DNA of 64,000 nucleotides, from NCBI GenBank assembly GCA_025677605.1, contig GCA_025677605.1_4110.1; one strand, 5' to 3'. The position numbers were made by a program, and so were the translations under genes. The notes under the pieces were generated by a model, which was not told where the DNA came from, made no database searches, and was given only the letters and a program-made list of their open reading frames with translations. This DNA is from a phage. Below, one piece after another: positions 35 to 19,430 of this stretch (positions are counted from its first letter, which is position 1; every line of letters begins with the position of its first letter).

Positions 35-634
35 TCAATCCTCAGTGAGAATACAGTTCAGGTACGAACACAGTTCATCGTAGAAGAGTTTGTCCAGTAC
101 TGTAAGGTAACAGATACCGTTCTCTTTCATTGCAGCCTGTATCTTATCATAACCATTCACTGTGTCAAGGATTTCTTGATAAGATAATGCATCATCATTA
201 ACAGTACTACTCTGGAATGCCATTTCTTCTATGTTATCGATGGGTTCCTCATCGGAATTTAAGAAGCCTCCATTTTGATATATAATGTAATCTTCATTCC
301 ATGATTTAGTGAAACGGAGCAGGATAGGTTCATTAGCGAACATTTCGATATCACCACTTTCAATGTCGTATGAACAATATAGATTACAGTCTTCATCTAT
401 GAATTCTGCCATAAAGATTGCAGTTCGAGAACCATCATATACATAAACTCCAGTTTTGTTCATCTCAACATCAACTGCCATTCCATTTTTGAATTGCATT
501 CGAATCGTGATTTTAAGACTTTGGAGTATGTTATTTTCTGTATCTTTAACACTATACAATCCACGATATCGTAACCACAAATCTTTGATAGTACTTAAAG
601 AATTGATTAAGTCTTCATTGGGATCTTTTTTCAT
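35..634 (-). CDS. FQ-motif family protein (uncharacterized tandem paralog)
   Basis: 199 aa ORF; motif EEMAFQSSTV near C-terminus; ATGA overlap with next gene. Confidence 0.6.
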   Translation of the reverse strand: MKKDPNEDLINSLSTIKDLWLRYRGLYSVKDTENNILQSLKITIRMQFKNGMAVDVEMNKTGVYVYDGSRTAIFMAEFIDEDCNLYCSYDIESGDIEMFANEPILLRFTKSWNEDYIIYQNGGFLNSDEEPIDNIEEMAFQSSTVNDDALSYQEILDTVNGYDKIQAAMKENGICYLTVLDKLFYDELCSYLNCILTED

Positions 635-1248
635 TCAGGTATTACCATATTGTTAATTAGTGTTTCTTTCTTGATGCAATCAGGCTTGATATAAATGAAC
701 ATCTTTCGTAGACTCTTCACTTTGTACCAATCATTCAGTACTGAAACCATAAGCCATAATTCTTCTGGTGTAGTGGTAACCTCTGTGATTACACCCATCT
801 GAAACAATGCACCCTTACAATCTTCAAGTGATTTCAGATCAGTCTTATACCCAGATTCAATATCCATTAGTGTTTTAGTTTTGGCATCATATGTGATGAA
901 CGATTCTTTTAGCGTTTTTCTTCCATCATTTAAGGTTAAAAACACTGGATTACCTGGACTAAACATGCACTCTTCAAATTCAGGAAATAAATCATGTGCT
1001 TCTTCATCATCGTCTTGGGTTAATTCCAGTACTAATTCATCTGTATAGATATTACAAATCCCAACGCTATATCTATTATACAGCGTTGTATATTGTGTGG
1101 GTTTTCCCTTTTTTGATAGCTTGAGTTCACTTTTCGGACCGTACTTGTCAAATAGTGTTTGTTTAGCTCTAATTAAATCTGGTGCAATGTTTAGTAAATC
1201 ACGTAGTGCTTTCTCGTACTTAACATACTCTGTTCTAATGTTAGTCAT
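631..1248 (-). CDS. FQ-family-like protein (diverged)
   Basis: 205 aa ORF in array; weak motif KGALFQMGVI. Confidence 0.5.
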   Translation of the reverse strand: MTNIRTEYVKYEKALRDLLNIAPDLIRAKQTLFDKYGPKSELKLSKKGKPTQYTTLYNRYSVGICNIYTDELVLELTQDDDEEAHDLFPEFEECMFSPGNPVFLTLNDGRKTLKESFITYDAKTKTLMDIESGYKTDLKSLEDCKGALFQMGVITEVTTTPEELWLMVSVLNDWYKVKSLRKMFIYIKPDCIKKETLINNMVIPE

Positions 1249-1780
1249 TGTAACCCTCTAAAAAATAATCTAATGTATCAAGTACATCACTATCAAAAAA
1301 ACAATTATTAACTACAACGATACCAGTATTATGTTCTAAATCATAACATTTATCCAGTACATTGATGCATTCATTGTACTCAATGATATCATGAAGAGTA
1401 CTGTGCTGAAAGTGTTCTTCTTCAGTGTACTCACAGTAATTAATATCAACACTGAACGATTGGTCGTTTCTTTTGCACGGATATAATTTAGTAGACTTTC
1501 GTCCAGACCATGTAATTGAATAACAACCAATCGAATTCTGTGGGATTTGTGTACCAGCATGAAGCATAATGTACAGAGCTTGCGAACTGTATGATTCAAC
1601 GTACAAACGGTTCTTATCTGCATTCATAACACAACCATCAATTGACATGCTTAGTGAATGTGACATTCTACTGGCTTTCCTGATGCCACGGCAGAAATTA
1701 ACATAACGCTGACGTAAGCTGTTAACTTTCTCAGGCCATAGCTCAAATTCTTTAGTATTTGATAATGTTGCAATGTGCAT
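1241..1780 (-). CDS. FQ-motif family protein
   Basis: 179 aa; motif EEHFQHSTLH. Confidence 0.6.
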   Translation of the reverse strand: MHIATLSNTKEFELWPEKVNSLRQRYVNFCRGIRKASRMSHSLSMSIDGCVMNADKNRLYVESYSSQALYIMLHAGTQIPQNSIGCYSITWSGRKSTKLYPCKRNDQSFSVDINYCEYTEEEHFQHSTLHDIIEYNECINVLDKCYDLEHNTGIVVVNNCFFDSDVLDTLDYFLEGYND

Positions 1781-1782
1781 TA

Positions 1783-2385
1783 TTATTCCTTAATAACTGG
1801 TATAGCAGACCAAATTCGTTTCATTAGTTCATCTTCTAATACCACATCAGTACTGATCTTTTTGTAGTTCATTGATAATAGAAAATTACATTTCAGTTCT
1901 GATTTTAATTTTTCATAAAGATCAATGTTCATATACATTTCTTCATACGAAGGTAAAGAATGAATTAATGAATTTTGAAAATACCATTCTTCGCTGAAAT
2001 CTTTCACTTCAACACTTTTGATATTCTTAAATGAATCCTTATCAAAATAATATGAAACATCAGAACCATTATAATGTGAAAATGTTTTGAATAATTTTAT
2101 TTCATTTGTTCTACGAAGAATTCTTTCATAGGACAGAATTTTACTATCTTCTAATTCACCATGAAGTATCAGTGAAATATCAAAATCATTTGCAAGTCCA
2201 GCACCAAGGCGTTTGAATGCTAGTGTAATTCGTTGTTCACATGCCGAGATTTCAATCCTGTAAAAATCAGTTGCATACGTTAACATAGAGTATGGGAGAT
2301 GCAACTTTTCATTATTAGAAATACTTTTAGCTAACGTAATGACAGGGTTAAGCATTTTATTAAGAATAGGCATGTCAATGATCAT
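1783..2385 (-). CDS. FQ-motif family protein
   Basis: 200 aa; motif EEWYFQNSLIH. Confidence 0.6.
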   Translation of the reverse strand: MIIDMPILNKMLNPVITLAKSISNNEKLHLPYSMLTYATDFYRIEISACEQRITLAFKRLGAGLANDFDISLILHGELEDSKILSYERILRRTNEIKLFKTFSHYNGSDVSYYFDKDSFKNIKSVEVKDFSEEWYFQNSLIHSLPSYEEMYMNIDLYEKLKSELKCNFLLSMNYKKISTDVVLEDELMKRIWSAIPVIKE

Positions 2386-2386
2386 A

Positions 2387-2890
2387 TCATAATTCTCTTA
2401 GTTTTTTCAATACATAGTGTAGTACTTCATCTTCATTTACATACGATGTGTACATGAGAAATTTGCAACAAGTACTGTTAAGATAGCACATGTAGGTGAA
2501 CATTGCACTATAATTATTCACAGTACTGTTCTGAAATTCAACTTCATCAATTTCACCCAATGATACAGGTCGCATGTTGCAATCTACACCATCAATTTTT
2601 ACAACAGTAGTTCCTGGATGAAAGACTGCGGATTGTGAACCTATGGTGCTTGTATCGAAACTTGGTGCATCATAGATAGGACTATTGCTATCAAAGAGCA
2701 TGAAAATGTCATGGTCTAAACCTCTTTTCTGCTCAAATACAACTCGGATCATACCATCTTTTTGTATTTTAAGAATAATATCTGGAGCCAGTTCGAATCG
2801 ACCATATTGTTCATTGATATATTTTTCTTCAAGAATTTTATGCAATTCCACAAAGTCTTTAGTACTAAAGTGTTCCATCATATCCCTCAA
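2387..2890 (-). CDS. FQ-motif family protein
   Basis: 167 aa; motif EVEFQNSTVN. Confidence 0.6.
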   Translation of the reverse strand: MRDMMEHFSTKDFVELHKILEEKYINEQYGRFELAPDIILKIQKDGMIRVVFEQKRGLDHDIFMLFDSNSPIYDAPSFDTSTIGSQSAVFHPGTTVVKIDGVDCNMRPVSLGEIDEVEFQNSTVNNYSAMFTYMCYLNSTCCKFLMYTSYVNEDEVLHYVLKKLREL

Positions 2891-3323
2891 CTAATTTTGT
2901 AATTTCTGCTCTTCGTACATCAATGTCATGAGCAAATGATATGGATGTGAAACCACGTTCCGCTGCAATGGCTCTCAACTGTAGGAGAAGTAATAACGGA
3001 TATATCACTTCATCAGAATACAAAGTACTTAATTGAAATATGGTTGCTTCATCAATCTCAGTACTTAAATCTATACTTTTAATATCAATGATTAACTGTG
3101 TATTGAAATACCATACATTGTCATTGACATAATCTATAGTAGTATTATCCATTACACTATAATCAATGTATCTTTCATTTGACCATAATGTCATCATATC
3201 ATCGCCGTCCGATGGATAGCTTACGTCAAACCATGAACCTGATTTTCGAGCTTTACCATTATCCAGTTCATTGAGGCAGTACTGGATTAACTTTTTCAGT
3301 AATTCGTAATCGTCTTTATTCAT
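2865..3323 (-). CDS. FQ-motif family protein
   Basis: 152 aa; motif EATIFQLSTLY; true start may be internal. Confidence 0.55.
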   Translation of the reverse strand: MNKDDYELLKKLIQYCLNELDNGKARKSGSWFDVSYPSDGDDMMTLWSNERYIDYSVMDNTTIDYVNDNVWYFNTQLIIDIKSIDLSTEIDEATIFQLSTLYSDEVIYPLLLLLQLRAIAAERGFTSISFAHDIDVRRAEITKLVEGYDGTL

Positions 3324-3801
3324 TGCATTTCCAGAATATAGGATGTTTGTTAAGTGTTTGAAATATCATATCAAATGTAAATTTGTAATAAGAATAAACA
3401 CCGAAATTAATTGATATAGAATTTAAATTAGTTTCATGCACCATAGCACTATGTATCAGAACTGCATTTCTATGAAACTCATTATCAAGGCTCAATTCAG
3501 CCATAAAATCATCTAAAGTTCTGTCGCCGTTCTTTTTCTCGTATATGATTTCACCACTTGGTTCAATGAATACTGAACTTTCCCTTGATAGGATCATGAT
3601 TCGTTTCTCAATGACATTTTGAGATTCTTGACAGTTGAGTTCACAAAATGTCCATGAGCCACAGAACACAGCGATAATGTCGTTGTTTTTCACGAAGTTA
3701 AAGGGAATGCCATCAATCATTATCTGTACTTCGTGCACAAATTTATGAGAATACTTCTCAAGAATTTTACAAAATTTAATAACGTCTGCTGGATTTAACA
3801 T
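3316..3801 (-). CDS. hypothetical protein in FQ array (motif not evident)
   Basis: 161 aa ORF, tightly coupled in array. Confidence 0.5.
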   Translation of the reverse strand: MLNPADVIKFCKILEKYSHKFVHEVQIMIDGIPFNFVKNNDIIAVFCGSWTFCELNCQESQNVIEKRIMILSRESSVFIEPSGEIIYEKKNGDRTLDDFMAELSLDNEFHRNAVLIHSAMVHETNLNSISINFGVYSYYKFTFDMIFQTLNKHPIFWKCNE

Positions 3802-4355
3802 TGGATTGCCTTAATATGTTCAATCATTGCCTTGGAGTTAGTACTCATGTACTCAAATATATCATCATTCATGAGTTCTGTCAAGTTCAATTCAACCGTA
3901 CATCCATCTGGTAAGTTCTTCTGACAGAACGGAGCCAGTACTGCACCGTACAGTACATACGGATCATCAATAATTAAACTCTTCTGGAAGCAATCACAAT
4001 CCATATCTTCTTCATTATCGAAGTAAGTACTGATATCTATTGCAGTACTATCTTTACACATCAACTCTACATCACCTTTTTTAATTACTACACGCTTTGT
4101 CTTGGTATTGCGTAATCGGGTGTATTCTTTTATGTGTCGTTGTTGTGTATTGATTTCAATGATATCTTTGTGGTTGTACGTTATTGTGAAGTGCATATCA
4201 TTATTCAAATCACCACTCAGAAAAAAATTAAGATCTCTTAGTACAGTGTGATTGACTTTAATGTATTCACCTTCACGAATTAAACTCAGTGCAGCTACAC
4301 AATCTTCAATAAACTTCTCAAGGAACTTCCCTCTATAGTAAAGACTATATTTCAT
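3795..4355 (-). CDS. FQ-motif family protein
   Basis: 186 aa; motif DCDCFQKSLII. Confidence 0.55.
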   Translation of the reverse strand: MKYSLYYRGKFLEKFIEDCVAALSLIREGEYIKVNHTVLRDLNFFLSGDLNNDMHFTITYNHKDIIEINTQQRHIKEYTRLRNTKTKRVVIKKGDVELMCKDSTAIDISTYFDNEEDMDCDCFQKSLIIDDPYVLYGAVLAPFCQKNLPDGCTVELNLTELMNDDIFEYMSTNSKAMIEHIKAIQC

Positions 4356-4930
4356 GAGAACTCCCCAGTATTGTTGATAAGACTGTCCAGACCTTCATGA
4401 ATTCTTTTAAATTCACTACGTTTAAAACGATGAACAATTTGTTGTAATGGACAGTATTTGTCTTTCTTATCCAGTTCATGATTGACGATTGTACTGAAAA
4501 GTAATAAATCCAATTCGTTAGTACTGTACATAGTACTTAACTGGAATAGTTCTTCTTCTATAGTACTACTGTTAAGATTAATCTTTGGAATTTTTTTACC
4601 TGAAATAACAATCCCTGCAAATTCACTTGTCCCTGGAACTTCAGCATTTCCTCCAATAATATAATCGTAGTTAATGTACCCATCGTTATTGGTTAAATCT
4701 TCTTTATTGTACTTAATTATCAGAAAGACACGTAGATCATTCATCGAAACTACTGCATGATCATACATACCTTCCTGGTCTTTAGTAATCGCCAAACGCA
4801 TATATGGGAGATTAAATGTCTTTTTAGTTTTACATAAATCACTATTAAGAATAGCATTCACTTTCAAAACCATCTTAGTGTAATATTGATACTCTTCGGA
4901 CATGTAATTATAAAGATTTGAGAAAGGCAT
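4352..4930 (-). CDS. FQ-motif family protein
   Basis: 192 aa; motif EEELFQLSTMY. Confidence 0.6.
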   Translation of the reverse strand: MPFSNLYNYMSEEYQYYTKMVLKVNAILNSDLCKTKKTFNLPYMRLAITKDQEGMYDHAVVSMNDLRVFLIIKYNKEDLTNNDGYINYDYIIGGNAEVPGTSEFAGIVISGKKIPKINLNSSTIEEELFQLSTMYSTNELDLLLFSTIVNHELDKKDKYCPLQQIVHRFKRSEFKRIHEGLDSLINNTGEFS

Positions 4931-5480
4931 TTAATTCCTCCAATAATTCTTCTTGTGTTTCAGTACTTTCATTGTATAAATTATTGAAAGCGGAACACTC
5001 CCCACTACCAAGTTGCATTGATAGTTGATATACAAAATCAGCTTTAGCTATCATATCATAACCAGGAAGCAACGACAACTGGAAAAGATATGCTTCTCGC
5101 TCTTCTGGATTTTGTAGCTCAGGTGCAATATGAAGATATTCTTCATCATCATAATAATCATCGTACAAATTTCTGACGATTAATTCGTTAGTTTCTTTGA
5201 GTTTATTCACAGTAAGACTACAATCAGAAACTGAACCCAAAAATTTACTCTCTCTGCCTGATGCCACATAAGAAGCATCAACTGACCATATATTTTTGGT
5301 TTTATGTTGAATGCAGTGTTGTATTTGGATATTAGCATAACGATACAAAGTACTGCAATCAAAAACTAATCGGTACATTGGATTGTTGAAGTAATGAAAA
5401 ATATTCTCTGTTCTTTTTTGTTCATCTAACTTATGAGTAAGTTCTTCTAGTACTTTAAAAATATCAATTAGTGTTTTCAT
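4908..5480 (-). CDS. FQ-motif family protein
   Basis: 190 aa; motif EAYLFQLSLL. Confidence 0.6.
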   Translation of the reverse strand: MKTLIDIFKVLEELTHKLDEQKRTENIFHYFNNPMYRLVFDCSTLYRYANIQIQHCIQHKTKNIWSVDASYVASGRESKFLGSVSDCSLTVNKLKETNELIVRNLYDDYYDDEEYLHIAPELQNPEEREAYLFQLSLLPGYDMIAKADFVYQLSMQLGSGECSAFNNLYNESTETQEELLEELNAFLKSL

Positions 5481-6018
5481 GTTCTTTTCTCGTTTGTGCG
5501 TAGTTTTTCAAGTCCTTGAGTAATACTACTAATTGATCATCAGTGAGTAATGATGCTGTTGCACTATATGACATATAATAATTATTGAGATTGAAATCAA
5601 ATTTATAGTTACGTGCTAAAGCTTCAATCGTAAGTGCATCAGTGATTAATTTATCGTGAGTTACAGAACTCTGGAAATTTTGTTCTTCTAAATTCTCAGT
5701 ACTGAACAACGCAATAGGATCATATGATGGTTCTTTGTAATCCACTGCCTCTTTCATTCGAGGATTACGTGAAATAAAAGCCCAAGAACTGTCATATGAA
5801 AAATCAACAACACAGTCTTCCTCATCACCTTCATGTGGGTAAACGCACAGAATAGTTTTATTTTCTTCTGTGAACATCTGCTGCGTTGCAATACCCTCTC
5901 CTGTGTATTCAATTTCATAATCGAAACCGATTCTTAATTTACGTCCCTGTGAATTACACGTTTCAAGAAGTTTTCCCAGTTCGTTGTAAATTTGTAAGAT
6001 TAATAGGTAATTGTCCAT
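5464..6018 (-). CDS. FQ-motif family protein
   Basis: start moved to ATG at 6016-6018 (MDNYLL) with RBS gaggat; ORF-track extension reads through the upstream terminator; motif EEQNFQSSVTH. Confidence 0.6.
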   Translation of the reverse strand: MDNYLLILQIYNELGKLLETCNSQGRKLRIGFDYEIEYTGEGIATQQMFTEENKTILCVYPHEGDEEDCVVDFSYDSSWAFISRNPRMKEAVDYKEPSYDPIALFSTENLEEQNFQSSVTHDKLITDALTIEALARNYKFDFNLNNYYMSYSATASLLTDDQLVVLLKDLKNYAQTRKEHENTN

Positions 6019-6054
6019 ATGATATCCTCGGTTAAATAATATTAAAATAATAGC

Positions 6055-6086
6055 AAAGAAAAAAGCCAGAGTCAATACCCTGGCTT
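6055..6086 (-). terminator. rho-independent terminator after MCP-like gene
   Basis: hairpin GCCAG...CTGGC followed by T-run on minus strand, directly downstream of the 6092 stop. Confidence 0.55.
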
Positions 6087-6091
6087 TAAAA

Positions 6092-7504
6092 TTATTTCAC
6101 GTTAAAAATCGAAGTGGCTTTTTGTAAAGCATGTACTTCAGACTGTTGATTGTCTACCATCATCATTGTGTCCTTGACATGCTCCGCATTTTGCTGTACT
6201 GAACGGTCCATCATATTAACACTCTCGGTAACCTGAAGGATTGCAATGCTTTGTTGTTCAGCCATTATAGCTAAATCATCAATGAACTGCAAGAGAGAAT
6301 CAACATTTTTTACAATAGAATCAATATCACTTGCAGTTTCGTTGATTTGTTCTATTCCTTGGTTGTTGTTTTTTACAGAGTTATCAACGATTTCTTTAAT
6401 TTCTTTACTACATGCATCACATTTCATTGCTAAGTTACGAACTTCCTGTGCAACAACAGAGAATCCACGTCCATGTTCACCCGCTTTAGCAGCCTCAATA
6501 CTGGCATTTAAAGAAAGAATATTAGTCTGGAAAGCAATAGTTTCTATATTTTTGAGTATAGCAACTATAGCATTAGAATCTTCTTTAATTCTATCCATCT
6601 GCTCTTTGCAATTATTAATACTTTCAATTGCATTAGTACTGGATTCTTTTGTAGTTTTAACCATACTTTTTGCAGTATTGGAGTTATCAGATGTATTTGC
6701 AGATGTAGCACTTAATTCTTCCATAGCAGCAGCGATTTGAGTAAGTGCCTGTCCTTGTGTTTCAGTTCTGAAAGCTAAATCATTACTTTTACTTTCGAGA
6801 TGATAGGAGTTGCTTTTCATTGACTGAACTGTAATTTGTACTTGTTCAATTGCCTCACGCATAGCTGATATTGTTTTACTAAAAGTCTGTGCAAATTCTG
6901 AGTTGAAATGATTATTTTGTATTTCTAAAGTAATATTGCCGTCTTCAGAATTCACCGAATGGGCAATTCGTTGAATTTCATCTGCTTCATTTGCATCTTT
7001 CTCCATAATATACGCAACGTACATCAGAACTATTGCCTGTACTACTACATATATTGCGTGCTCTATAATGTGCCATAACGAAATATGGTGAAAAGAAAAC
7101 ACGAATAATATTGGAATTCCAGCACCCTGTAACAATCCAAATAATAAATGATGTATAGCAATCAGTACTGAACCTGCTAATACACAACGCCAGTCACGCC
7201 ATACAATCAATAAACTTAAAAAGACAAAAACTGTAAAGTGCCATTCCACCATCCCTAAGCCAAGATGTATTAGTAACGCACTCCAGCACATCACATTTAT
7301 ACTTAACAACGTTCGAGTGAACGCATTACTTTCAACAAATAGTAAAGGAGTTAGCATTACTAATAATAAAACTGCACCGATTAGTGCAATAATAAAACTA
7401 CCATGAACAACACCGGAAACTAAAGTAACAGCAAATAAAGCCCCTATACAACATAGTACTAAATTATCGGCTTTTTTGCGTATATTTTCTAAATTACTTT
7501 TCAA
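6092..7504 (-). CDS. methyl-accepting chemotaxis protein-like (N-terminal multi-helix His-rich membrane domain, C-terminal MCP signalling domain)
   Basis: 470 aa; signalling-domain signature [37 protein letters not shown]; about 6 hydrophobic helices in first 170 aa. Confidence 0.8.
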
Positions 7505-8049
7505 CGTACTTCTCCATAATTTAAATTATCATCAATATATTTTTTTAATAACAAATGCATTTTCTCTAGTTCCTCTTGGCTTTTGGTAAGTAACTTGTCC
7601 ATAATTGTAATTTCATAATGATCTTCTAATAACCTAAGTAATTTATAACCCATTTCTAGCTTATTATAAGTTAATTGATCATATGACATAGCAGCCATGA
7701 ACATTTGTTCTTTGAAAGTGTTTGAATCAATTTTAGCTACAGCTAACTTCTCGTCATCTTCATAAGAATGTTTTACCAGTATCTTAGTGTAGCGTGATAC
7801 ATTATATAGACGAATTTCACTATCTCCGCGTAGAATTTCCATCTTGTATTCTTGTCTACGTTGTGTTGCATTAATGATCTTTACGACATAACCTAAACCA
7901 CTAATGAACAATGTAATATTAGAATATACTGATGGAGATTCTTTTGGGTTGATATTTAATTCACCTAACTCAAAATTAACAGTCTTATTATCAGGACTGT
8001 TTTTAAAAATATAAATCATGCATTCAATAATATTTACAATGCTATCCAT
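7501..8049 (-). CDS. FQ-family-like protein (diverged; FM in place of FQ)
   Basis: 182 aa; [13 protein letters not shown]; first gene of promoter-to-terminator unit containing MCP. Confidence 0.5.
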
Positions 8050-8080
8050 AAAATACGCTCTCTTTTAAATAGGTTACAAT

Positions 8081-8109
8081 ATTCTAACACTCTACATTAC
8101 TAATGTCAA
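8081..8109 (-). promoter_or_regulatory. sigma70-like promoter for 7501..8049 + MCP unit
   Basis: minus strand TTGACA, 17 nt spacer, TAGAAT; about 30 nt upstream of ATG at 8049. Confidence 0.45.
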
Positions 8110-8116
8110 CCTATAA

Positions 8117-8141
8117 ACGAAAAAAGACCCATCAGGGTCTT
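8117..8141 (-). terminator. rho-independent terminator (possibly bidirectional)
   Basis: hairpin GACCC-atca-GGGTC flanked by A-run and T-run; overlaps stop of 8132..8683. Confidence 0.5.
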
Positions 8142-8683
8142 TTAAATGCTCGTAAGTCTCTCAGAATGTTTGGTAGAGTGCCTTGTTCCATTACAGAATT
8201 CAGTACATTAAGATCCATTGTAAGATAGAAACCATCAGGGATGTAATCACGCACTAACTTATCCAACTCAATGATATCCATTGTTAACTGATCATATAGA
8301 GTACTGTACTGGAAAAGCACCCCATCGTCAACATTTAAATCTATTAAGTTATCACCGTGATTGCATTGGCAAAAGTTATTAGCAAGATTTTTATGTTTAA
8401 TGCTGCTTATGTACACATATGGATAACGTGTGAGTACACGATTCTGTGCCTCCGAACAACCATCTGCAATTTCTTCATCTGATAACTCAGGGTGCAAAAG
8501 AAACAATGAACTATCACTAATGTACAAAGTACCTATAGAACCGTTTTTATTATTACTGTGTCGAATATAACATGAACCAAGATTTGATATAGGTTTTATA
8601 TCTTGTAGTACAATAGGAAAAAAGTTAATAATAACTTTAGATAGATCTTTTAGTACTGGGTTTATTGTTAATGGTAGACTCAT
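8132..8683 (-). CDS. FQ-motif family protein
   Basis: 183 aa; motif DGVLFQYSTLY. Confidence 0.6.
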   Translation of the reverse strand: MSLPLTINPVLKDLSKVIINFFPIVLQDIKPISNLGSCYIRHSNNKNGSIGTLYISDSSLFLLHPELSDEEIADGCSEAQNRVLTRYPYVYISSIKHKNLANNFCQCNHGDNLIDLNVDDGVLFQYSTLYDQLTMDIIELDKLVRDYIPDGFYLTMDLNVLNSVMEQGTLPNILRDLRAFKRP

Positions 8684-9312
8684 TTCATTATCCTTGAACC
8701 GCCTATATAGGTATCGTTAAAATAATTATCATTTTCAAACGCCATGTTATTCAAATCAGCAAGGTCATCGAAGTAACCGCCTTCAATACATATTTCTTTG
8801 AATACGTCACTGTACTTGAATAAATTTACTAAACTAAAGGTAATGTCTGCTCTTTGAACTTTAGTACATTTAAGGTGCTCATGTAGATATGGGAAAACAA
8901 TAGTATATAATAAATCATTCGGTTCATATATTAAACTATTTTGAAAGAATGATTCTTCTGAATAATCCATAACATTGAGGTTCAATCTAAGTACCTCATT
9001 ACTATCCAGTACTAATGTTTTATCTGACAAATCGAAGTTCAAGCAGTGCGTATAAAATGGTCCCAAATTACCAACTCTATTTTTATCTAAACCACTAGGA
9101 CTGAAATCAAGCCATACTTCATTCAACTCACTATCATCTGATTCTATGTACTCAAGAACATTGTTATGAAAACGCATGTCATAACATTCAAGGAACTTAT
9201 CATCCTTCAGACGTGGTAATATGTCCGTTAATGCTCGTGCATACGCAATGCAGTGCTTATACTCTAGGCGATGAAAAACGTACTTTGAAATTGGTTTTCT
9301 TTTTGTACTCAT
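8680..9312 (-). CDS. FQ-motif family protein
   Basis: 210 aa; motif EESFFQNSLIY. Confidence 0.6.
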   Translation of the reverse strand: MSTKRKPISKYVFHRLEYKHCIAYARALTDILPRLKDDKFLECYDMRFHNNVLEYIESDDSELNEVWLDFSPSGLDKNRVGNLGPFYTHCLNFDLSDKTLVLDSNEVLRLNLNVMDYSEESFFQNSLIYEPNDLLYTIVFPYLHEHLKCTKVQRADITFSLVNLFKYSDVFKEICIEGGYFDDLADLNNMAFENDNYFNDTYIGGSRIMK

Positions 9313-9316
9313 TCAA

Positions 9317-9931
9317 TTAATCTCCAATTGTACATATGTTTTCTTCAGTAATACTTTTTAATTTAAGTAATAAACCATCCCAGTCCTGTTCTTTGAATAT
9401 TTCAGGTTCTAATTTGATATACTTTGTTAATGGTAATTTAGGGGATAGATTTTTACAAAATTTAATAGCATCAATAACACAGGCGTTGTGAATTAATGAG
9501 TACTGAAACAATGTTTCGTCGAGTACATCATCATCTGGAATATCCAGAAATTCAGGTTCATGTGTTGTGACATAGTATTCTTCTTCTTCATCCATATCAA
9601 TGTAGACTTTATTAAGATAATTAAGTCCAGATGAACTAATAAAAATACCATCGCTTCTTGAGATACAAATATAAGAACTGGGCATATATATATCTAAATC
9701 TCTTTCTCTGTTGTGGTCGGTCAATTCTGTTCTTACGCAGATGATAGCTTTACAATTTTCATCCATTAAATCAAACCATTTGTCACCACGGTCAAATTTG
9801 TATGTAGAATTTTGTTCAGTACTGGTATGAAATGAAATAACACGATTTGTTAGACGCCATGCAAATTCATGAATACGAATTAGTTCTAAACTTATCTGAC
9901 TAATTTTATCTATTGTTTCGTTTGTCAGCAT
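9317..9931 (-). CDS. FQ-motif family protein
   Basis: 204 aa; motif DETLFQYSLIH. Confidence 0.6.
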   Translation of the reverse strand: MLTNETIDKISQISLELIRIHEFAWRLTNRVISFHTSTEQNSTYKFDRGDKWFDLMDENCKAIICVRTELTDHNRERDLDIYMPSSYICISRSDGIFISSSGLNYLNKVYIDMDEEEEYYVTTHEPEFLDIPDDDVLDETLFQYSLIHNACVIDAIKFCKNLSPKLPLTKYIKLEPEIFKEQDWDGLLLKLKSITEENICTIGD

Positions 9932-10412
9932 TTTTTAAAATCCTTACTTGTTTAATAAAGTGCTTCATTGAAGCAAATTCAAAACTAATTCTCTGAAACT
10001 CACTATATTTTTTAAAGTACGATAGAATAAACATAGCTTTAAGTTCAGAGTCATTGTAAATTAATGAATTTTGGAAATAATTTTCATCCGTTAAATCCGT
10101 AATGTACGGAAGTATATGATTAATAAATTGGGCTTTTCCTCTTTGGTGTGAAATATATTTTATATCAGAACCATCTGAACGAAATAGAATATAGTCTGTT
10201 TTACCTTTCTCAAACATAGAATGAGCCAGACGATCTTCAGCTTTAGTATGAAAATATATACTATGAGCACCGTGACGAATATTGAAAGACGATTCAGTAC
10301 TGTGATGGATAGCGAAATATCTATGCAAATTAACTTCATTAACGTACAAATAAGTTATTGTATCAAGACAATCCTTTGCGAACTTTATTAGTTCTGATAG
10401 TTTCCTCGACAT
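9906..10412 (-). CDS. FQ-motif family protein
   Basis: 168 aa; motif DENYFQNSLIY. Confidence 0.6.
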   Translation of the reverse strand: MSRKLSELIKFAKDCLDTITYLYVNEVNLHRYFAIHHSTESSFNIRHGAHSIYFHTKAEDRLAHSMFEKGKTDYILFRSDGSDIKYISHQRGKAQFINHILPYITDLTDENYFQNSLIYNDSELKAMFILSYFKKYSEFQRISFEFASMKHFIKQVRILKNADKRNNR

Positions 10413-10421
10413 ATAGCACCT

Positions 10422-10892
10422 TTATAAATGTTCCAAAAATGTATTAAAGAAATCCAAATCAATATAAAAGGAATTAAGTCCTTCGCTTCTTAAGTATGTT
10501 ACAATCACAGATAGTAAAAGTATATTACTTGTATATAATAATGAGTTTTGAAAGTACATCTCTTCATTACATATTTCAATATATGAAGGTAATACTTTAA
10601 AATCACTGTCATGAACACAAATTTTATCAAGGTATGAATGGTACTGAATATAATAGTAATCAAAGCTCATGAATGATTCATTATCACACACTGATTCCCC
10701 TATGTTTAAAACTTCAGTACCAGCGTAATACCATGCATTATGAGTATTTGATTTTTCAAACACTTTGTCAAATTTACCATTATTACCAGCATGATAAATC
10801 TTCATCAAAATCTTTGCAAAATCAATACACGCCGCATATGAATCGTATCGGATAACGTGACCATCCAGTACTAACTCGTCGGATTCTATCAT
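10422..10892 (-). CDS. FQ-motif family protein
   Basis: 156 aa; motif EEMYFQNSLLY. Confidence 0.6.
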   Translation of the reverse strand: MIESDELVLDGHVIRYDSYAACIDFAKILMKIYHAGNNGKFDKVFEKSNTHNAWYYAGTEVLNIGESVCDNESFMSFDYYYIQYHSYLDKICVHDSDFKVLPSYIEICNEEMYFQNSLLYTSNILLLSVIVTYLRSEGLNSFYIDLDFFNTFLEHL

Positions 10893-11371
10893 AGAGAAAG
10901 TTCCTCTGCAAGTAATTCCTCAATAAGTTCAAGATGTACTAAATCCAGATAGAAAGCACTGGCATTTACACTATTGAGATATGAATACAACATTATAGCA
11001 CGAACTGTTTCTTCTGTATAGATCAAAGATAACTGAAAGTGCGTCTCTTCAGTAGGCTTATAAGAACCTATATTATCAAGTACAATTGTCTCTTCCTCCC
11101 ATTGGAAGTAACATACAAGTGTATTCCCTGGGGTAAAGGTCATGTACAAATCCATTAGATTGTATTCTGAATCATCATAAATCGTAGCGTAGATGGCCTC
11201 TCTTTTGGATTTGAATGTAGGTAGTTTTATGACAAATGAACTTTTATCACAGCTTTTAATCTTATCGACATATGAACGCTTTTGGAACTCAGTACTTTCC
11301 ATTATAAGATGAATTTTGTAAATCTTTTTTGCAAAATCAATATCTTCCTGGAATGTCATTAATCTCTCCAT
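10889..11371 (-). CDS. FQ-motif family protein
   Basis: 160 aa; motif EETHFQLSLIY. Confidence 0.6.
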   Translation of the reverse strand: MERLMTFQEDIDFAKKIYKIHLIMESTEFQKRSYVDKIKSCDKSSFVIKLPTFKSKREAIYATIYDDSEYNLMDLYMTFTPGNTLVCYFQWEEETIVLDNIGSYKPTEETHFQLSLIYTEETVRAIMLYSYLNSVNASAFYLDLVHLELIEELLAEELSL

Positions 11372-11790
11372 TTTTTTCCTGGGAAATGCTTATCGTAGAA
11401 CTCATCATCACTAAGCATATAATCAGGAATTTCTCTTTCGATCTTTAAAAACTCTACATTAGTTGAAAAATATTCAGGGCTAGACTTAGGCACAAAGTCC
11501 ATTAAACCCTCCTGAATCTTCTTGAGAAGGTCAATATCACCACGGTAAGGACATACTAAGCTGTACTGAAATAGCTCGTCAGGTGGCATTACAGCGAGAT
11601 TCTCAATGTCATATTGTGAGTTATCTTTGTGAGAATAGATATAGAATTTATTCTCCGGTACTGGTTGTGTTACTTTAGAATAATACAATTCGTTATTATC
11701 ATCCAGCATTACACTATGAGTGCAACCATACGTTTGAAATCTTGTATTAAGTAAAGCCTTTGATTTAACTTTTATAATTTCAAAATACAT
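11359..11790 (-). CDS. FQ-motif family protein
   Basis: 143 aa; motif PDELFQYSLVC. Confidence 0.6.
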   Translation of the reverse strand: MYFEIIKVKSKALLNTRFQTYGCTHSVMLDDNNELYYSKVTQPVPENKFYIYSHKDNSQYDIENLAVMPPDELFQYSLVCPYRGDIDLLKKIQEGLMDFVPKSSPEYFSTNVEFLKIEREIPDYMLSDDEFYDKHFPGKKWRD

Positions 11791-12128
11791 TAATCCACCT
11801 CAAGTGTAAATTTGTGCATCATAAATGATTTAACCAGAAATAAATCTTTGTGTTTTAGTTTCTGAAGAGACTCCAACAAAATATTCTGTACATCTAATAA
11901 TTCGTATACATCATATTCAAATGCAGTGCTCATTTGAAATAGTTCTTCTTCACTTAAATTGTAAAGAAGTTCCAAATTCGTATCTTTATGTTTAGTAGAA
12001 ATAAAAGATACAATGGATTCATCCTCTTCTACAGAGAAGATAACCCAATGTCCAGCCTTGCATTCTTTTTGGACAATAAAAATTTCATCACCATCGTGCA
12101 TGTACTCAATATCAACTACTTTTCCCAT
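11790..12128 (-). CDS. FQ-motif family protein
   Basis: 112 aa; motif EEELFQMSTAF. Confidence 0.6.
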   Translation of the reverse strand: MGKVVDIEYMHDGDEIFIVQKECKAGHWVIFSVEEDESIVSFISTKHKDTNLELLYNLSEEELFQMSTAFEYDVYELLDVQNILLESLQKLKHKDLFLVKSFMMHKFTLEVD

Positions 12129-12615
12129 TTAGATATCCCTTGCATACTTCAAAATCATTCAAATCAAAATAGAAGTCAGTTTCAATTTCATGCTTATATC
12201 GGAGAAAACCGTAGAGTGTTATGACATTCAATACCAACATATTCATAGTAGTACTGAACTGAAAGTAATCTTCTTCAGAAATTAGTTTTACATCTTCTTC
12301 CTTGATACTACTCTTTTTATTACGACCATTTTCATCACGTAAATCTACTACAACTTCACCTTCTTTTGAGTAAGATAGGTAATTCATGCCTACACTATAT
12401 TCACTATCATCAAATGATTCACAGAAGATTTCCATCATTTCGCCTGATTTCTGTGTATATGTTAAACAACTTTTCCTATCCCTGTTAAGACTCTTTTTTC
12501 GAGAATACATTGAACCAAATGCTGTAGTATTGTTCTTGAATTCATCATAGATTTCGTAGATATCTTTTGCGTACTGTTCAATCTCATCGTAATTAAGTTT
12601 GCTAATATCAGGCAT
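12112..12615 (-). CDS. FQ-motif family protein
   Basis: 167 aa; motif EEDYFQFSTTM. Confidence 0.6.
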   Translation of the reverse strand: MPDISKLNYDEIEQYAKDIYEIYDEFKNNTTAFGSMYSRKKSLNRDRKSCLTYTQKSGEMMEIFCESFDDSEYSVGMNYLSYSKEGEVVVDLRDENGRNKKSSIKEEDVKLISEEDYFQFSTTMNMLVLNVITLYGFLRYKHEIETDFYFDLNDFEVCKGYLNGKSS

Positions 12616-13112
12616 TACAATTCTCCTACACGATTAATATGATCCAACATGATATCATAATCACTAAGGTCAAAGTAAAATTGGGCATCTGGTGGTAATT
12701 TTTTATGCAATTCAGATATTGCAGTTAATGCAAAAACCACATCTTCTGAATAGATTGTGCAGTACTGAAAGTATTCACACTCATCATTGATATCAATGAG
12801 ATCTATCTCTTCGCACTCCAAAAATTCTTTATAAAAACGAAGAGTACCTTTCGCTTTCGCATTGAATCCAAAGAATGACGAACCAAGAATTCTGACATTA
12901 TTATGTGCTTCAACTTTGCTGTATAACATATGCATACGAAATGACAGGATACTGGATACCTGTACTGTATCGGTAAACATTTCACCACTTTTGGGGTCCA
13001 CATATGTAACGTCAAAATTAGTTTCAACATCTCTTAAAAAGTTATGAATGCGAATTAAATTGTCTGCAAAAGTTATAGCATTACTGTATGAGAGTTCAGG
13101 ATTGAATTGCAT
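12615..13112 (-). CDS. FQ-motif family protein
   Basis: 165 aa; motif DECEYFQYCTIY. Confidence 0.6.
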   Translation of the reverse strand: MQFNPELSYSNAITFADNLIRIHNFLRDVETNFDVTYVDPKSGEMFTDTVQVSSILSFRMHMLYSKVEAHNNVRILGSSFFGFNAKAKGTLRFYKEFLECEEIDLIDINDECEYFQYCTIYSEDVVFALTAISELHKKLPPDAQFYFDLSDYDIMLDHINRVGEL

Positions 13113-13168
13113 GATATGATCCTTTTCGTATTAGATGAAAAAGATTATATCATGCACAGAAGGAGGTG

Positions 13169-13705
13169 TCAAGATGGATTACGAACAAAATTCCAAATTA
13201 GATCGTAAAAAGTAAGGTCAACATAAAAAGGAGGGAAGTTATTCTGTTTAAGCCAAGAGAACATGAATTGTACACCAACTATGTACGGGTCGTCAACAGT
13301 ACTCATCTGAAAGAACAGTTCTTCGGTAAGTTCTTCTTCTATAAATGGTATAACAATGTCTGCCTCTTCATAAAAGAACTTTATTCTGTCATAGTCAGGT
13401 GAATAACTTAAAAAGCCACCGCTGTATTTTGGATCATATTCAGGGTCATTAAATTTGTTGATATTGAACATATCAACACTGTACCCGTCATCATCCAGAC
13501 CTCTTGAACGAATACTGAAGTAATCATAACTTGAATCAATAAATCTGTCAGATTTTACCCAAATAGAAGTCTCTCTGTTATTACAAATGAACTCATGGAT
13601 TTGCATAAGATCTTGAGCAGTACTGCGAGCGTGTTCAAAAGTGTCAACCTTTAAATGGTGAGTACCGTCCCAATCATCTTTCTCTATTCTGTCATAATCT
13701 AACAT
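13169..13705 (-). CDS. FQ-motif family protein
   Basis: 178 aa; motif EELFFQMSTVD; preceded by RBS-like ggaggt. Confidence 0.6.
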   Translation of the reverse strand: MLDYDRIEKDDWDGTHHLKVDTFEHARSTAQDLMQIHEFICNNRETSIWVKSDRFIDSSYDYFSIRSRGLDDDGYSVDMFNINKFNDPEYDPKYSGGFLSYSPDYDRIKFFYEEADIVIPFIEEELTEELFFQMSTVDDPYIVGVQFMFSWLKQNNFPPFYVDLTFYDLIWNFVRNPS

Positions 13706-13707
13706 AA

Positions 13708-14046
13708 TTAAACCTCTTTGTATTGGACAATAAATTCCAGTTCTCTTTGTAGTTCACATGGATAGTTATTCATTATATCTTTCATTAGTTGTTGATACTT
13801 AAATAACTTTTCAATATCTACAATTCTATTATACTCCCATACTAATGATTCCTGAAATAACTCTTCTTCACTATAATCACTGTAATCAAAAATATGAAAT
13901 ACATCTCGTGCTAAATTATTAGTGATTATCTTGAACATATTCTTTTCATATGTAAGATAATAAAAATGTTCTTTCTTGTGGTTATAACCTAACTCAATCA
14001 TTACATAGTACTGATGTTTGGCTATAGTAACTTTAACTAAATCCAT
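13708..14046 (-). CDS. FQ-motif family protein
   Basis: 112 aa; motif EEELFQESLVW. Confidence 0.6.
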   Translation of the reverse strand: MDLVKVTIAKHQYYVMIELGYNHKKEHFYYLTYEKNMFKIITNNLARDVFHIFDYSDYSEEELFQESLVWEYNRIVDIEKLFKYQQLMKDIMNNYPCELQRELEFIVQYKEV

Positions 14047-14459
14047 CAGTACTCAACCTCTACATGAATAGATTCAGGAAACTTAGTCATATGATCTTCT
14101 GGATAGTTCTGCATTGCTTTGATCATCTCTACCTGTGTAGCACGGACGTATTCAATTGGTGCTCCTGGTAAATCCCAAACTGTACTTTCCTGAAAGAATT
14201 CCTCTTCTGACAGTACTGTAAGATTTACAAAATCATTACGATAATTTTTTGAATCATCATATGTGAAGATTTTAAAAGACCCATTTTCATATAGTACAAG
14301 AACAAAATGGGAGAATTTTTGTAATGCATCAAACCTTTCCACGACCGCATGATTCAGTGTACAAATGACCTCTTTTTTCCTCATACCGAATTGGATTCTA
14401 ATTTCTTTTTTCATAAAATCTCCTTCAGATGAGTACAAAATTTGTACAGTATATTGCAA
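14046..14459 (-). CDS. FQ-motif family protein
   Basis: 137 aa; motif EEEFFQESTVW. Confidence 0.6.
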   Translation of the reverse strand: MQYTVQILYSSEGDFMKKEIRIQFGMRKKEVICTLNHAVVERFDALQKFSHFVLVLYENGSFKIFTYDDSKNYRNDFVNLTVLSEEEFFQESTVWDLPGAPIEYVRATQVEMIKAMQNYPEDHMTKFPESIHVEVEY

Positions 14460-15061
14460 TCCGCAATGTACAATAACTCAAGAATTTTGGAATTCTGAAA
14501 TTCCTTACACAGAACATTAGAACTGTATACTGATGCTGAATCCACATTCATAATCAAATCCTGTTGGAATGCAACATCAGTACTTGGATTGAGATCCACA
14601 TCTTGTACTGCACCTTTATTATAAAATGAAGTACCTGTGCCTAAATTCTTACCCAATCCAATAATGAAAGAAGTACTGGAATTTAATGTAAGTTGATACA
14701 GATTGCTTCTTACATCGTAGAAGAAACGATTTAAATCACGATCAATCTTGAAATCATCATTGCATTTAATCAAATCACGCTTTGACATATATGGTTTAAT
14801 ATACATAAAGTTCACACCATTATATGAAAGCTCACATTCTTTTTGTGTTTTATTAAATGATTTAACTAAATCACGAAATGTAGAAGGTGATTGACTCAGT
14901 ACTGTATCGTAATAATATTCAGCAGTACTGATGAGTAGCTTAGCTTTCTCGTGAATATCAAATGTGGAAGTTTTGTTTAAATTGATCAATTCTTCTCTCC
15001 ATTTCATCAATACAAGTATCAATGTCTTCATAATTTGCATATACAAATACAGGAGCATCAT
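14411..15061 (-). CDS. FQ-family-like protein (diverged)
   Basis: 216 aa; TDVAFQQDLIM; start probably internal. Confidence 0.5.
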   Translation of the reverse strand: MMLLYLYMQIMKTLILVLMKWREELINLNKTSTFDIHEKAKLLISTAEYYYDTVLSQSPSTFRDLVKSFNKTQKECELSYNGVNFMYIKPYMSKRDLIKCNDDFKIDRDLNRFFYDVRSNLYQLTLNSSTSFIIGLGKNLGTGTSFYNKGAVQDVDLNPSTDVAFQQDLIMNVDSASVYSSNVLCKEFQNSKILELLYIADCNILYKFCTHLKEIL

Positions 15062-15506
15062 CCCTTAAACGAAGGATATTCCACAAAGAAATACCAAACA
15101 CTTCAATATCATTGTGCACTGTACTTAACTGAAAAACACTTTCTTCATTAATTTCAAGGTGTGGTAAATCTATGTGTTTGTCAACATCACTCAACGATGT
15201 AACATCAACTGCACTCGCTCCTGCATTAAAAGTATTCAGTACTGTCGAATCTTTTCTGTACACTAATCCATACAATTCCCCATTGTTATGGGTGCACATA
15301 GATAATTTTCCATTTGTTTCAGGAACAGAACCGAACTTAATAAGTGTTCGGCCTGAAGATCTGAAAGACATATACGTCATGTAATCGTGTTGTGAAACAT
15401 CTAGCTCACTACGGGCAAGTATACGCTCATCTTGCAGTACTACTTCCGTCAATTTGGTTAGTGTACTTAACTTATTTGCAAAAGAAATTATCTCATCATA
15501 GGTCAT
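14958..15506 (-). CDS. FQ-motif family protein
   Basis: 182 aa; motif EESVFQLSTVH. Confidence 0.6.
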   Translation of the reverse strand: MTYDEIISFANKLSTLTKLTEVVLQDERILARSELDVSQHDYMTYMSFRSSGRTLIKFGSVPETNGKLSMCTHNNGELYGLVYRKDSTVLNTFNAGASAVDVTSLSDVDKHIDLPHLEINEESVFQLSTVHNDIEVFGISLWNILRLRDDAPVFVYANYEDIDTCIDEMERRIDQFKQNFHI

Positions 15507-15732
15507 AGTGTTCGCTCATTTCATTCATATATTCATAGCACGATAGGTATATAATTTTTTTAATCATAAAAGACATATCAGATTTATCACTGTCCTCTGC
15601 AATACGAAAAATATAACGCATATTAGCAAAGATATAAAGAGGTATATCAGATGCTTCAGTACCAGAAAATATATCTATAATAAACCCATAACTGAAATCC
15701 GATGCTGGTGCTTGTTCAAAAGTATTGTCCAT
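15496..15732 (-). CDS. hypothetical small protein
   Basis: 78 aa ORF in array. Confidence 0.4.
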   Translation of the reverse strand: MDNTFEQAPASDFSYGFIIDIFSGTEASDIPLYIFANMRYIFRIAEDSDKSDMSFMIKKIIYLSCYEYMNEMSEHYDL

Positions 15733-15922
15733 TTTTCATCCTTATAATACCCAATAGGTACTTAATATACGTCTCAACTGAAGCCTCCTGGTATTGTGTC
15801 CCTATGTACATCAGTAACTGTAATTCCGACACGTCATTTTGATTGGAAGACCTGATTGCAGTGAACATTTGAGCACTGTATTGGTTAAGAATATCTTGCA
15901 TGTCTCTGTGTCTTATACCCAC
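15716..15922 (-). CDS. LGT-motif family small protein
   Basis: 68 aa; MYIGTQYQEASV. Confidence 0.5.
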   Translation of the reverse strand: MGIRHRDMQDILNQYSAQMFTAIRSSNQNDVSELQLLMYIGTQYQEASVETYIKYLLGIIRMKNGQYF

Positions 15923-16140
15923 GGTGACTCCCCCTTTCCTTGAACTTTATTCTGAATTAATTTCTGAAGGTTAAAAATGTAATCTTTCATCACAACCTCT
16001 TGATAATTAGTTCCAAGAAAATGATTCAACTTGTAATCATGATATGGTCGCCTCTTCTTCAAAAGGGGATGAAATGTATTCCATTTTGTGTAAATGTCAG
16101 AACACATCCTGTAGTACTGGTGTTTTGGAATATACTTCAT
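15913..16140 (-). CDS. LGT-motif family small protein
   Basis: 75 aa; HFLGTNYQEVVM. Confidence 0.5.
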   Translation of the reverse strand: MKYIPKHQYYRMCSDIYTKWNTFHPLLKKRRPYHDYKLNHFLGTNYQEVVMKDYIFNLQKLIQNKVQGKGESPWV

Positions 16141-16706
16141 AGTATACCATCAACGAATACATCTTCGAATTCAAATGTTGAAGTATCAATGTATAAATTA
16201 CTTCTGAAGTTCATTTGCATCTCCATATATAGACGTAGAATCATGTACATGTCATCAGTACATGACAATTGAAACATCTGCTCTTCAAATGCGTTGTAAT
16301 TGTATTTCGGGATTTCAATAGTACTACTCTTTACTGTATCCCACCAGTTCTGAATACCAAAATATAATTCAGTACTTTTTCCTGTATAAAACAAATTCAT
16401 GATTTGATTTTTTTCATTCAAGTACAAACGGTTCGTGCCGCATACGGCAATACCAATACCAATAAGTGTAAGTGCAGGAAGACCGTCACGTAATACACGA
16501 CAACGATGAAATGTACCACCCTTATAGACTGACTGTAGGTAGTATCCTTCTTTAATAATGTCTCGTGATGGAATCAAACCAGTACTGCAATCCTTAAGCA
16601 AAGGAACTATAATGTTGATTTTACGAGATAATTCCTGCATTTCCTCTGCATTGTAAGCATCAATAATCATTTCATGTGCACCTTTTGAATTAATATTACT
16701 GTGCAT
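16137..16706 (-). CDS. FQ-motif family protein
   Basis: 189 aa; motif EEQMFQLSCTD. Confidence 0.6.
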   Translation of the reverse strand: MHSNINSKGAHEMIIDAYNAEEMQELSRKINIIVPLLKDCSTGLIPSRDIIKEGYYLQSVYKGGTFHRCRVLRDGLPALTLIGIGIAVCGTNRLYLNEKNQIMNLFYTGKSTELYFGIQNWWDTVKSSTIEIPKYNYNAFEEQMFQLSCTDDMYMILRLYMEMQMNFRSNLYIDTSTFEFEDVFVDGIL

Positions 16707-16742
16707 TGTAACACAGTACAGGCTCTTGTCAATAGCATGAAC

Positions 16743-17189
16743 TCATTTTTTAGAACTAATCTTACGTAAGTACTCAAAGTAATCTAAATCAATGTATACC
16801 TGATCGTGCTTCAAGTTCATAGTACTAATAAGATAAAACAAACGTAATACATGTAGTTCTTCATGATTCAGTACTGTACTCAATTGAAAGTATCCTTCTT
16901 CATTACCTACACTTTGTATTGTCTCTCTGGTATACACTGTACGGTCATCACTACTGTCACGTACCACAATCAACTCGTCTGCAAGTGCATTATAGGAGAT
17001 GTAATTTGAATAAGAATTGAAAAATGATTGCTCTTCCGAGCACCCACCACAGAAAGTAAAATATACACACCCACCTTTCTCGTATTCAAGCTCACTACCC
17101 AATACGTTAGGATTATCATTGAAGTACTTGATTATTTGTACAATATCCTGAACCAACTTATCATTTACTTCATAATAATAAAAAAACAT
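16743..17189 (-). CDS. FQ-motif family protein
   Basis: 148 aa; motif EEGYFQLSTVL. Confidence 0.6.
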   Translation of the reverse strand: MFFYYYEVNDKLVQDIVQIIKYFNDNPNVLGSELEYEKGGCVYFTFCGGCSEEQSFFNSYSNYISYNALADELIVVRDSSDDRTVYTRETIQSVGNEEGYFQLSTVLNHEELHVLRLFYLISTMNLKHDQVYIDLDYFEYLRKISSKK

Positions 17190-17194
17190 TACAA

Positions 17195-18093: not shown

Positions 18094-18094
18094 T

Positions 18095-19419: not shown

Positions 19420-19430
19420 AGTTAAGACCC

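Follow-up and report, generated by a model that had tools for sequence, protein, structure and literature searches.

The locus described here lies in a 64,000-nucleotide stretch of phage DNA (NCBI GenBank assembly GCA_025677605.1, contig GCA_025677605.1_4110.1; the whole stretch is called the window below), and its central element is a gene on the minus strand that encodes a methyl-accepting chemotaxis protein (MCP). A model that saw the letters and a list of open reading frames (ORFs), without database searches, had pointed to this gene. Its account (the sequence-only reading) was that the product carries an MCP signalling signature, and both of the protein strings that it quoted are present. 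The contig is a phage and not a piece of bacterial chromosome: the region shares 98.7% identity with Escherichia phage A4 (ON286972), a virulent jumbo phage of 355.5 kb that belongs to Asteriusvirus and has E. coli LF82 as its host, and the remaining parts of the window show about 90% identity to many PBECO4-like jumbo phages. Since the contig is phage and the MCP domain is supported by the domain search, neither of the two findings that the sequence-only reading had named as damaging to it was obtained. We find that the gene encodes an intact-looking chemoreceptor, with a six-helix membrane sensor and a signalling tip close to that of the E. coli receptors, in a transcription unit of its own.

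The MCP gene and the ORF upstream of it (7501..8049) are packed closely. The MCP start codon overlaps the stop codon of the upstream ORF, and a ribosome-binding motif, GGAG, lies 8 nt upstream of the start. The predicted promoter (8109..8081) matches the consensus at 11/12 positions and is the top site in the 8 kb from 4000 to 12000. The pattern TTGACA-N14-TGN-TANNNT has six matches in the window, all on the minus (coding) strand, against 0.13 expected; thus, the cassette promoter belongs to a real, enriched class. These extended -10 promoters are probably the early promoters of the phage, served by the host polymerase, that punctuate the array of paralogous genes around the cassette. At the other end, the terminator behind the MCP gene (6087..6062) has an 11-bp stem with five GC pairs, followed by TTTTTTCTTT. 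Its folding energy is -18.3 kcal/mol (z -4.6), and 0 of 200 shuffled sequences were as good. This terminator had been proposed at 6055-6086; it is present, but its stem ends about a base away from that position. The terminator of the preceding gene (8143..8122) has a 9-bp stem with four GC pairs and then a T-run, with a folding energy of -12.9 kcal/mol (z -2.7). Since the two genes are flanked by terminators and have a σ70 promoter, we regard them as an autonomous cassette, and the promoter-to-terminator unit that had been read from the letters is borne out. Coordinates of these features, and of those discussed below, are given in Table 1.

Table 1. Features of the chemoreceptor cassette and of the encoded protein. 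Nucleotide positions are those of the window, and conservation is given over 150 divergent representatives of the sensor family.
Feature	Nucleotides	Strand	Residues	Description
MCP gene	6092..7504	-	470 aa	TTG start; Pfam, NCBIfam and Tsr matches
Upstream gene	7501..8049	-	182 aa	co-oriented with the MCP gene
σ70-type extended -10 promoter	8081..8109	-		TTGACA-17-TAGAAT with TG; consensus match, predicted
Intrinsic terminator	8122..8143	-		closes the preceding paralog gene 8132..8683, just upstream of the cassette promoter
Intrinsic terminator	6062..6087	-		5 nt past the MCP stop codon
Promoter-like site	6047..6075	-		TTGACT-17-TATTAT with TG, 10/12; consensus match only
Six-transmembrane sensor domain	7001..7504	-	1-168	N-in/C-in
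HAMP-like linker	6830..7000	-	169-225	helix from transmembrane helix 6, 18-residue connector, second helix
Pfam MCPsignal (PF00015)	6203..6664	-	281-434	includes the hairpin tip
Hairpin tip	6419..6541	-	322-362	counterpart of Tsr 370-410
Position of Tsr Q297			T249	lost
Position of Tsr E304			T255-Q256-I-A-A-A	partial methylation site
Position of Tsr Q311			E262-E263-L-S-A-T	perfect methylation consensus
Position of Tsr E493			D445	lost
Position of Tsr E502			Q453-Q454-S-E-V-H	without consensus A-S/T context
Sensor residue			position 80 (H or Q)	conserved 91%; H80 in the phage
Sensor residue			E87	conserved 99%
Sensor residues			H89, F90, F93	conserved 100%
Sensor residues			D104 / W105	conserved 96% / 95%
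Sensor residue			H118	conserved 96%
Sensor residue			H119	conserved 100%
Sensor residue			Q126	conserved 95%
Sensor residue			H149	conserved 99%
Sensor residue			position 156 (E or Q)	conserved 98%; Q156 in the phage

The C-terminal part of the protein is an MCP signalling module. The Pfam MCPsignal model scores 127.5 bits (E 6.3e-37), above its gathering cut-off of 34.6, and NCBIfam chemoreceptor models match residues 150-469 with E-values down to 7e-50, at scores under their full-length cut-offs. Residues 205-469 align with residues 253-517 of E. coli Tsr without a gap (phmmer, E 5.7e-36), which puts the phage receptor in the same heptad-length class (36H) as the host receptors. A shared heptad-length class is a prerequisite for entering the same chemoreceptor array. 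The two helices of the hairpin span residues 203-340 and 342-464 in the AlphaFold model. Identity to Tsr is 73% at the core tip (Tsr 370-410), 51% over 351-430 and 10-29% elsewhere. The Tsr residues that make trimer, CheA and CheW contacts (F373, I377, N381, E385, E391, F396, V398, E402 and R404) are all kept, the last eight as I329, N333, E337, E343, F348, V350, E354 and R356 in phage numbering. No CheW-like sequence was found in A4, so host proteins would be required for the control of CheA.

The N-terminal part, residues 1-168, forms six transmembrane helices in its AlphaFold model (pLDDT 90.3, pTM 0.85). The predicted loops carry nine Lys/Arg residues on the cytoplasmic side and none on the periplasmic side, which indicates the N-in, C-in topology. 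The longest external loop has 15 residues, and there is thus no periplasmic domain. The sequence-only reading had described a multi-helix, histidine-bearing membrane domain lacking a periplasmic sensor, and the topology and the model agree with it. Neither Pfam nor NCBIfam has a match to residues 1-170 of this six-transmembrane (6TM) sensor, and PHROGs and PADLOC likewise gave it no name. PADLOC matches to DruC and JetC were discarded as weak coiled-coil matches. Sequence matches in the PDB start at residue 137 or later, and all of them are MCP/Aer proteins.

The sensor belongs to a large bacterial family. A search with the sensor alone against 1.84 billion cluster representatives gave 2,629 relatives at E<=1e-3, of which 511 remained at the stricter E<=1e-10, the clusters being defined at 50% identity. 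The family architectures examined were all either MCPs, some with a HAMP or GAF domain in addition, or short fragments, and the membrane part had no Pfam model. A profile search of a word-indexed database with the N-terminal alignment returned only 12 fragments, and the taxonomy look-up led mostly to metagenomic entries. The phage sensor keeps every hallmark residue of the family (Table 1). Judged by helix position, H80, E87, H89, H118/H119, Q126 and H149 lie in the periplasmic half of helices 3-6, and Q156 is in this half too. We infer that they form a buried polar His/Glu/Gln cluster; clusters of this type coordinate a metal ion or heme, or titrate with pH. The motifs A-x-H-H-L-x-F and E-x-H-F presumably resemble the helix VII and helix X motifs of cytochrome oxidase.

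The full-length homologues (99% coverage) are MCPs encoded on bacterial chromosomes. Those of Enterobacter (E. soli), Pseudocitrobacter (P. corydidari), Pantoea and Siccibacter are 37-40% identical to the phage protein, and those of Cupriavidus and Paraburkholderia (Burkholderiales) about 31%. One bacterial homologue lies directly after flhB-flhA-flhF-fliA and another adjoins exbBD; no conserved partner gene was found near them, the contexts differing among the loci examined. These homologues look like genuine taxis receptors. The DNA of the Enterobacter 6TM sensor was sought in 5,426 complete E. coli genomes, with DNA-level sensitivity only, and matched none of them. In one Paraburkholderia locus (L087, 7588..9708) the 6TM-sensor MCP stands beside a gene for an MHYT-GGDEF-EAL protein, itself a membrane-embedded sensor whose histidines are conserved; with only this one case, the neighbourhood is perhaps coincidental.

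Between the sensor and the hairpin lies a segment in which the sequence-only reading saw no obvious HAMP domain. Put as a plain absence, this is too strong. Pfam HAMP (PF00672) does not match, even in a scan restricted to the linker at E<=10. However, a HAMP-like arrangement is predicted directly behind transmembrane helix 6 (TM6). In the full-length AlphaFold model (pLDDT 86), TM6 is extended into a helix of residues 143-184, which is followed by coil (185-202) and by a helix that starts at residue 203. The phmmer alignment pairs this linker with the HAMP domain of Tsr (Tsr 216-264) at 12% identity. In addition, the top matches of a profile built from the family linker fall on residues 223-274 of MCPs that have Pfam HAMP at 216-263, with a best domain E-value of 1.4e-4 in a set of 81 proteins. 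Because of the model, the Tsr alignment and the linker profile, we call this segment a degenerate HAMP-like linker.

The gene has the base composition of its surroundings. Its GC content, overall and at third codon positions, is 0.345/0.251, compared with a mean of 0.332/0.296 in the array and 0.57/0.667 in the Enterobacter soli homologue. This phage-like composition implies that the acquisition is old. Between the window and A4, the MCP codons differ by 21 synonymous and 4 non-synonymous changes, and for a third isolate the numbers are 20 and 5. There is no amino-acid change in the 6TM domain among the three isolates. Thus, the synonymous excess among them indicates clear purifying selection on the MCP gene.

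The distribution of the locus is narrow. At distant-DNA and protein sensitivity, the MCP and the array region were found only in A4 and in one Logan metagenomic contig. The MCP protein has no match in any complete Asteriusvirus genome except A4. The DNA of the array and cassette has none in the complete Asteriusvirus genomes other than A4, even at distant-DNA sensitivity, and the insertion junctions were sought in this way. It is already known that such genes exist: this one is labelled 'methyl-accepting chemotaxis protein' (A4_379) in the GenBank record of A4, and phage genomes have now and then been listed with MCP-like genes. Other annotations of this kind are sporadic and unstudied (phrog_8572, 'unknown function'; phages of ammonia-oxidising bacteria (AOB); IMG/VR contigs). 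The paper on A4 does not discuss the MCP gene (PMC9355613). In the literature on phage MCPs we found a passing listing, in AOB phages, and no functional study.

Comparison with known receptors helps to place the phage protein. Like Tsr and Tar of E. coli, which are of the 36-heptad class, it has an ungapped hairpin with a closely similar tip, an EE-x-x-A-T site at the position of Tsr Q311 and a HAMP-like region past its last transmembrane helix. Unlike them, it has a 6TM bundle in place of the periplasmic four-helix ligand-binding domain, it has neither the C-terminal linker nor NWETF, its hinge reads A/I/A, it has one or two plausible methylation sites, and it is encoded by a virulent phage. 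The bacterial MCPs with a 6TM sensor have the same architecture, are homologous over the full length and share all of the sensor hallmarks; the phage copy differs from them in being AT-rich and in lying in a phage cassette rather than a chromosome. The archaeal receptor HtrVIII is the only described chemoreceptor of this architecture that we could find in the literature, and it is likened to the phage receptor by its description only. HtrVIII of Halobacterium salinarum has six N-terminal transmembrane segments and an MCP domain; it has been proposed to serve aerophilic taxis, with conserved histidines that bind heme and sense oxygen (PMC13401364, a review, citing Brooun et al. 1998).

By structure, the AlphaFold model of the sensor most resembles the 6TM domains found in membrane adenylyl cyclases and in a diguanylate cyclase, with which it shares the fold of a six-helix bundle. 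The proteins compared were the class III adenylyl cyclases AC9 (6r3q), AC5 (8sl3) and Cya of M. tuberculosis (7yzi) and the diguanylate cyclase ImcA of P. aeruginosa (8wcn), the last of which is described as a 6TM homodimer (PMC10904736). In the structural alignments only 10-11% of residues are identical, which does not demonstrate a common origin. A Foldseek search of the PDB gave nothing significant (best AC8, TMq 0.54, E 4.2), and one of the BFVD viral structures gave no viral analogue. Judged from the models, the phage receptor and the cyclases would share a dimerising 6TM bundle whose last helix continues as a coiled coil in the cytoplasm and so governs a dimeric output. The phage protein departs from the cyclases in its output, an MCP hairpin, and in its His/Glu cluster, a feature of the MCP family alone. 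As a genetic element the gene is comparable to the phage morons: it is likewise non-essential and host-derived, has its own promoter and terminator, and is found in one sub-lineage only. In contrast to morons, which temperate phages carry, it sits in a virulent jumbo phage, and its base composition is not foreign.

We suggest, with moderate confidence, that the gene encodes a functional-looking receptor that joins the host arrays and biases the swimming of the host. The host σ70 RNA polymerase would transcribe the gene early from the extended -10 promoter, and the receptor would insert in the N-in/C-in orientation and dimerise through its 6TM bundle. A stimulus would be sensed within the membrane by the outer-leaflet His/Glu/Gln cluster, the candidate signals being a metal ion, protons, or a heme/redox cofactor and hence oxygen. 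The conformational change would pass from TM6 through the degenerate HAMP-like linker to the hairpin. The tip would enter mixed trimers of dimers with host Tsr/Tar, and host CheA, hence flagellar rotation, would be modulated. Adaptation would be weak and aided by neighbouring receptors, and the net outcome would be that the swimming of the infected cell comes under the control of the phage. Broth cultures of the host are not lysed by A4, whose infection strategy has been called atypical (PMC9355613); the infected cell may thus have time to go on behaving. Since the sensor residues are intact and the gene is under purifying selection, we favor a working receptor over an inert decoy.

More tentatively, and with some doubt, we propose that the phage confers a sensory modality that E. 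coli lacks, in the form of a membrane-embedded, His-ligated metal, heme/redox or pH sensor set on host CheA/CheW, and that the infected cell navigates for the phage. If this is true, the infected cell may, for example, be drawn to a niche set by oxygen, redox state or a metal, or to places in the gut where hosts are more abundant, and this would be viral control of bacterial behaviour through a receptor encoded by the virus.

Several features weigh against a receptor that switches as Tsr does and serves the phage in this manner. The trimer-contact residue R388 of Tsr is K340 in the phage, and Arg is found at this position in 234 of 241 aligned MCPs, an alignment that mixes length classes. Three of the five methylation positions of Tsr are lost (T249, D445) or out of consensus context (Q454). 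The glycine hinge (Tsr G340, G341 and G439) is A292, I293 and A391 in the phage. This loss is common to all three phage isolates, while the 33 closest bacterial homologues have Gly at position 292 in 100% and at 391 in 91% of cases. The hinge is the bending point of kinase-OFF receptors, and side-chain replacements in it impair Tsr chemotaxis (PMC6606802). Finally, any benefit that a lytic phage would draw from its host in this way is a matter of conjecture. In addition, the phage receptor ends at the position of Tsr 518, with no flexible tail and no NWETF pentapeptide. Low-abundance receptors of E. coli are also without this tether and depend on their neighbours for adaptation.

Some of these features would fit a protein that joins the host arrays and then holds CheA permanently on or off, or blocks the trimers. 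Chemotaxis would be abolished or rotation fixed, and the phage might gain by saving energy, by staying put or by excluding flagellotropic phages. The lost hinge, which is conserved in the family, is the main feature that, on sequence grounds, suggests a biased or non-switching output. A single canonical methylation site and the lack of NWETF would make for weak adaptation, the tip is well enough conserved for array entry, and the change from R388 to K340 falls on a trimer contact. We nevertheless consider such a locked receptor unlikely. It would need the tip only, whereas the sensor hallmarks are all kept and the 6TM domain is unchanged in the three isolates, which would be unexpected if sensing were dispensable. 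Among the 241 MCPs of mixed length classes, Ala stands at position 292 in 24 and at position 391 in 17, so it is not rare at the hinge and we do not give the hinge loss great weight. Of the 87 columns conserved in the family, the phage copy retains 69; both hinge glycines are among the 18 that differ, the rest being mostly conservative substitutions.

A role outside chemotaxis, in which the protein would sense or scaffold at the membrane independently of CheA, appears less probable again. Examples would be envelope or redox sensing that times phage development, or superinfection exclusion at the membrane. MCP-like proteins drive non-motility outputs in some bacteria, the CheW search found no other che gene in the phage, and the coupled upstream orphan could be a phage-specific partner. 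However, the tip that contacts CheA, CheW and the trimer partners is the best-conserved part of the protein (73% to Tsr), which points to the canonical partners, and no phage output partner is identifiable, the PADLOC matches being weak coiled-coil ones. That the gene is a functionless passenger, a host-derived fragment picked up by chance and unused by the phage, is very improbable: though it is confined to the A4 lineage among Asteriusvirus genomes and the accessory regions of jumbo phages gather orphan genes, the ORF is intact in three isolates with its excess of synonymous changes (21 against 4), its fully phage-like composition implies long residence, it has a strong promoter and a terminator of its own, and the family-conserved columns are largely kept (69/87).

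The phage receptor is intact, under selection and in its own cassette, and its length class and tip are compatible with the E. coli array. Since its carrier A4 is cultured and has a tractable host, whether phages steer infected bacteria is open to direct test. The findings also reach beyond phages. The 6TM domain with its His cluster marks a large family of bacterial sensors (about 2,600 clusters) that has no Pfam model, and its likeness to the membrane anchors of cyclases bears on whether those anchors are receptors.

The companion gene of the cassette (7501..8049) is an orphan. Its sole homologue among 5.8 billion proteins is the A4-type copy, it matches phrog_36809 (unknown function) weakly (E 9.7e-10), and its GC content of 0.286 is the lowest in the neighbourhood. 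Since it is translationally coupled to the MCP gene, it could encode a phage-specific partner of the receptor. The array around the cassette consists of 40 small genes on the minus strand (35..26946; about 110-216 aa, from an iterated profile) with an EE-x-FQ-x-SLIY-like motif. They have no Pfam match and fall only into PHROGs of unknown function, e.g., phrog_9317 and phrog_35776. The sequence-only reading had set the whole unit inside this array. This holds for the immediate neighbours of the cassette, 8132..8683 and 5464..6075, which are both members, but not detectably for the orphan: BLASTP does not support it as a paralog, and the iterated hidden Markov model gives E 3.7 with all filters off, whereas members score 1e-10 to 1e-30. 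The promoter-like site at 6075..6047 overlaps the MCP terminator and would, from its sequence, restart transcription into the downstream paralog gene.

Further observations concern other phages and the rest of the window. Matches to the MCP tip only (about residues 247-445, 33-37% identity) occur in 'hypothetical proteins' of other jumbo phages, namely Microcystis phage MaAM05 (274 kb) and Vibrio phages Yong XC31, XC32 and MS31 (290 kb). Many further 'phage' records that match the MCP resemble bacterial contigs or contamination. IMG/VR holds 179 MCP-like stretches, and the 6TM sensor was found in 0 of the 80 loci retrieved. In the window, the six sites with the promoter pattern are on the minus strand at 3856, 8081, 13144, 22357, 26362 and 28196, and more promoter matches at 11-12/12 positions are at 16732, 21587, 23342 and 24757. 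The GC content steps near position 32000 from about 0.33 in the paralog array to 0.37-0.40 at 32-52 kb, and this higher-GC part is the portion with about 90% identity to many PBECO4-like phages. Past a strand switch near 54 kb, where the sign of the GC skew flips, five tandem paralogous genes on the opposite strand (57674..63456, plus strand) encode Kelch or RCC1-like beta-propeller repeat proteins of 310-408 aa.

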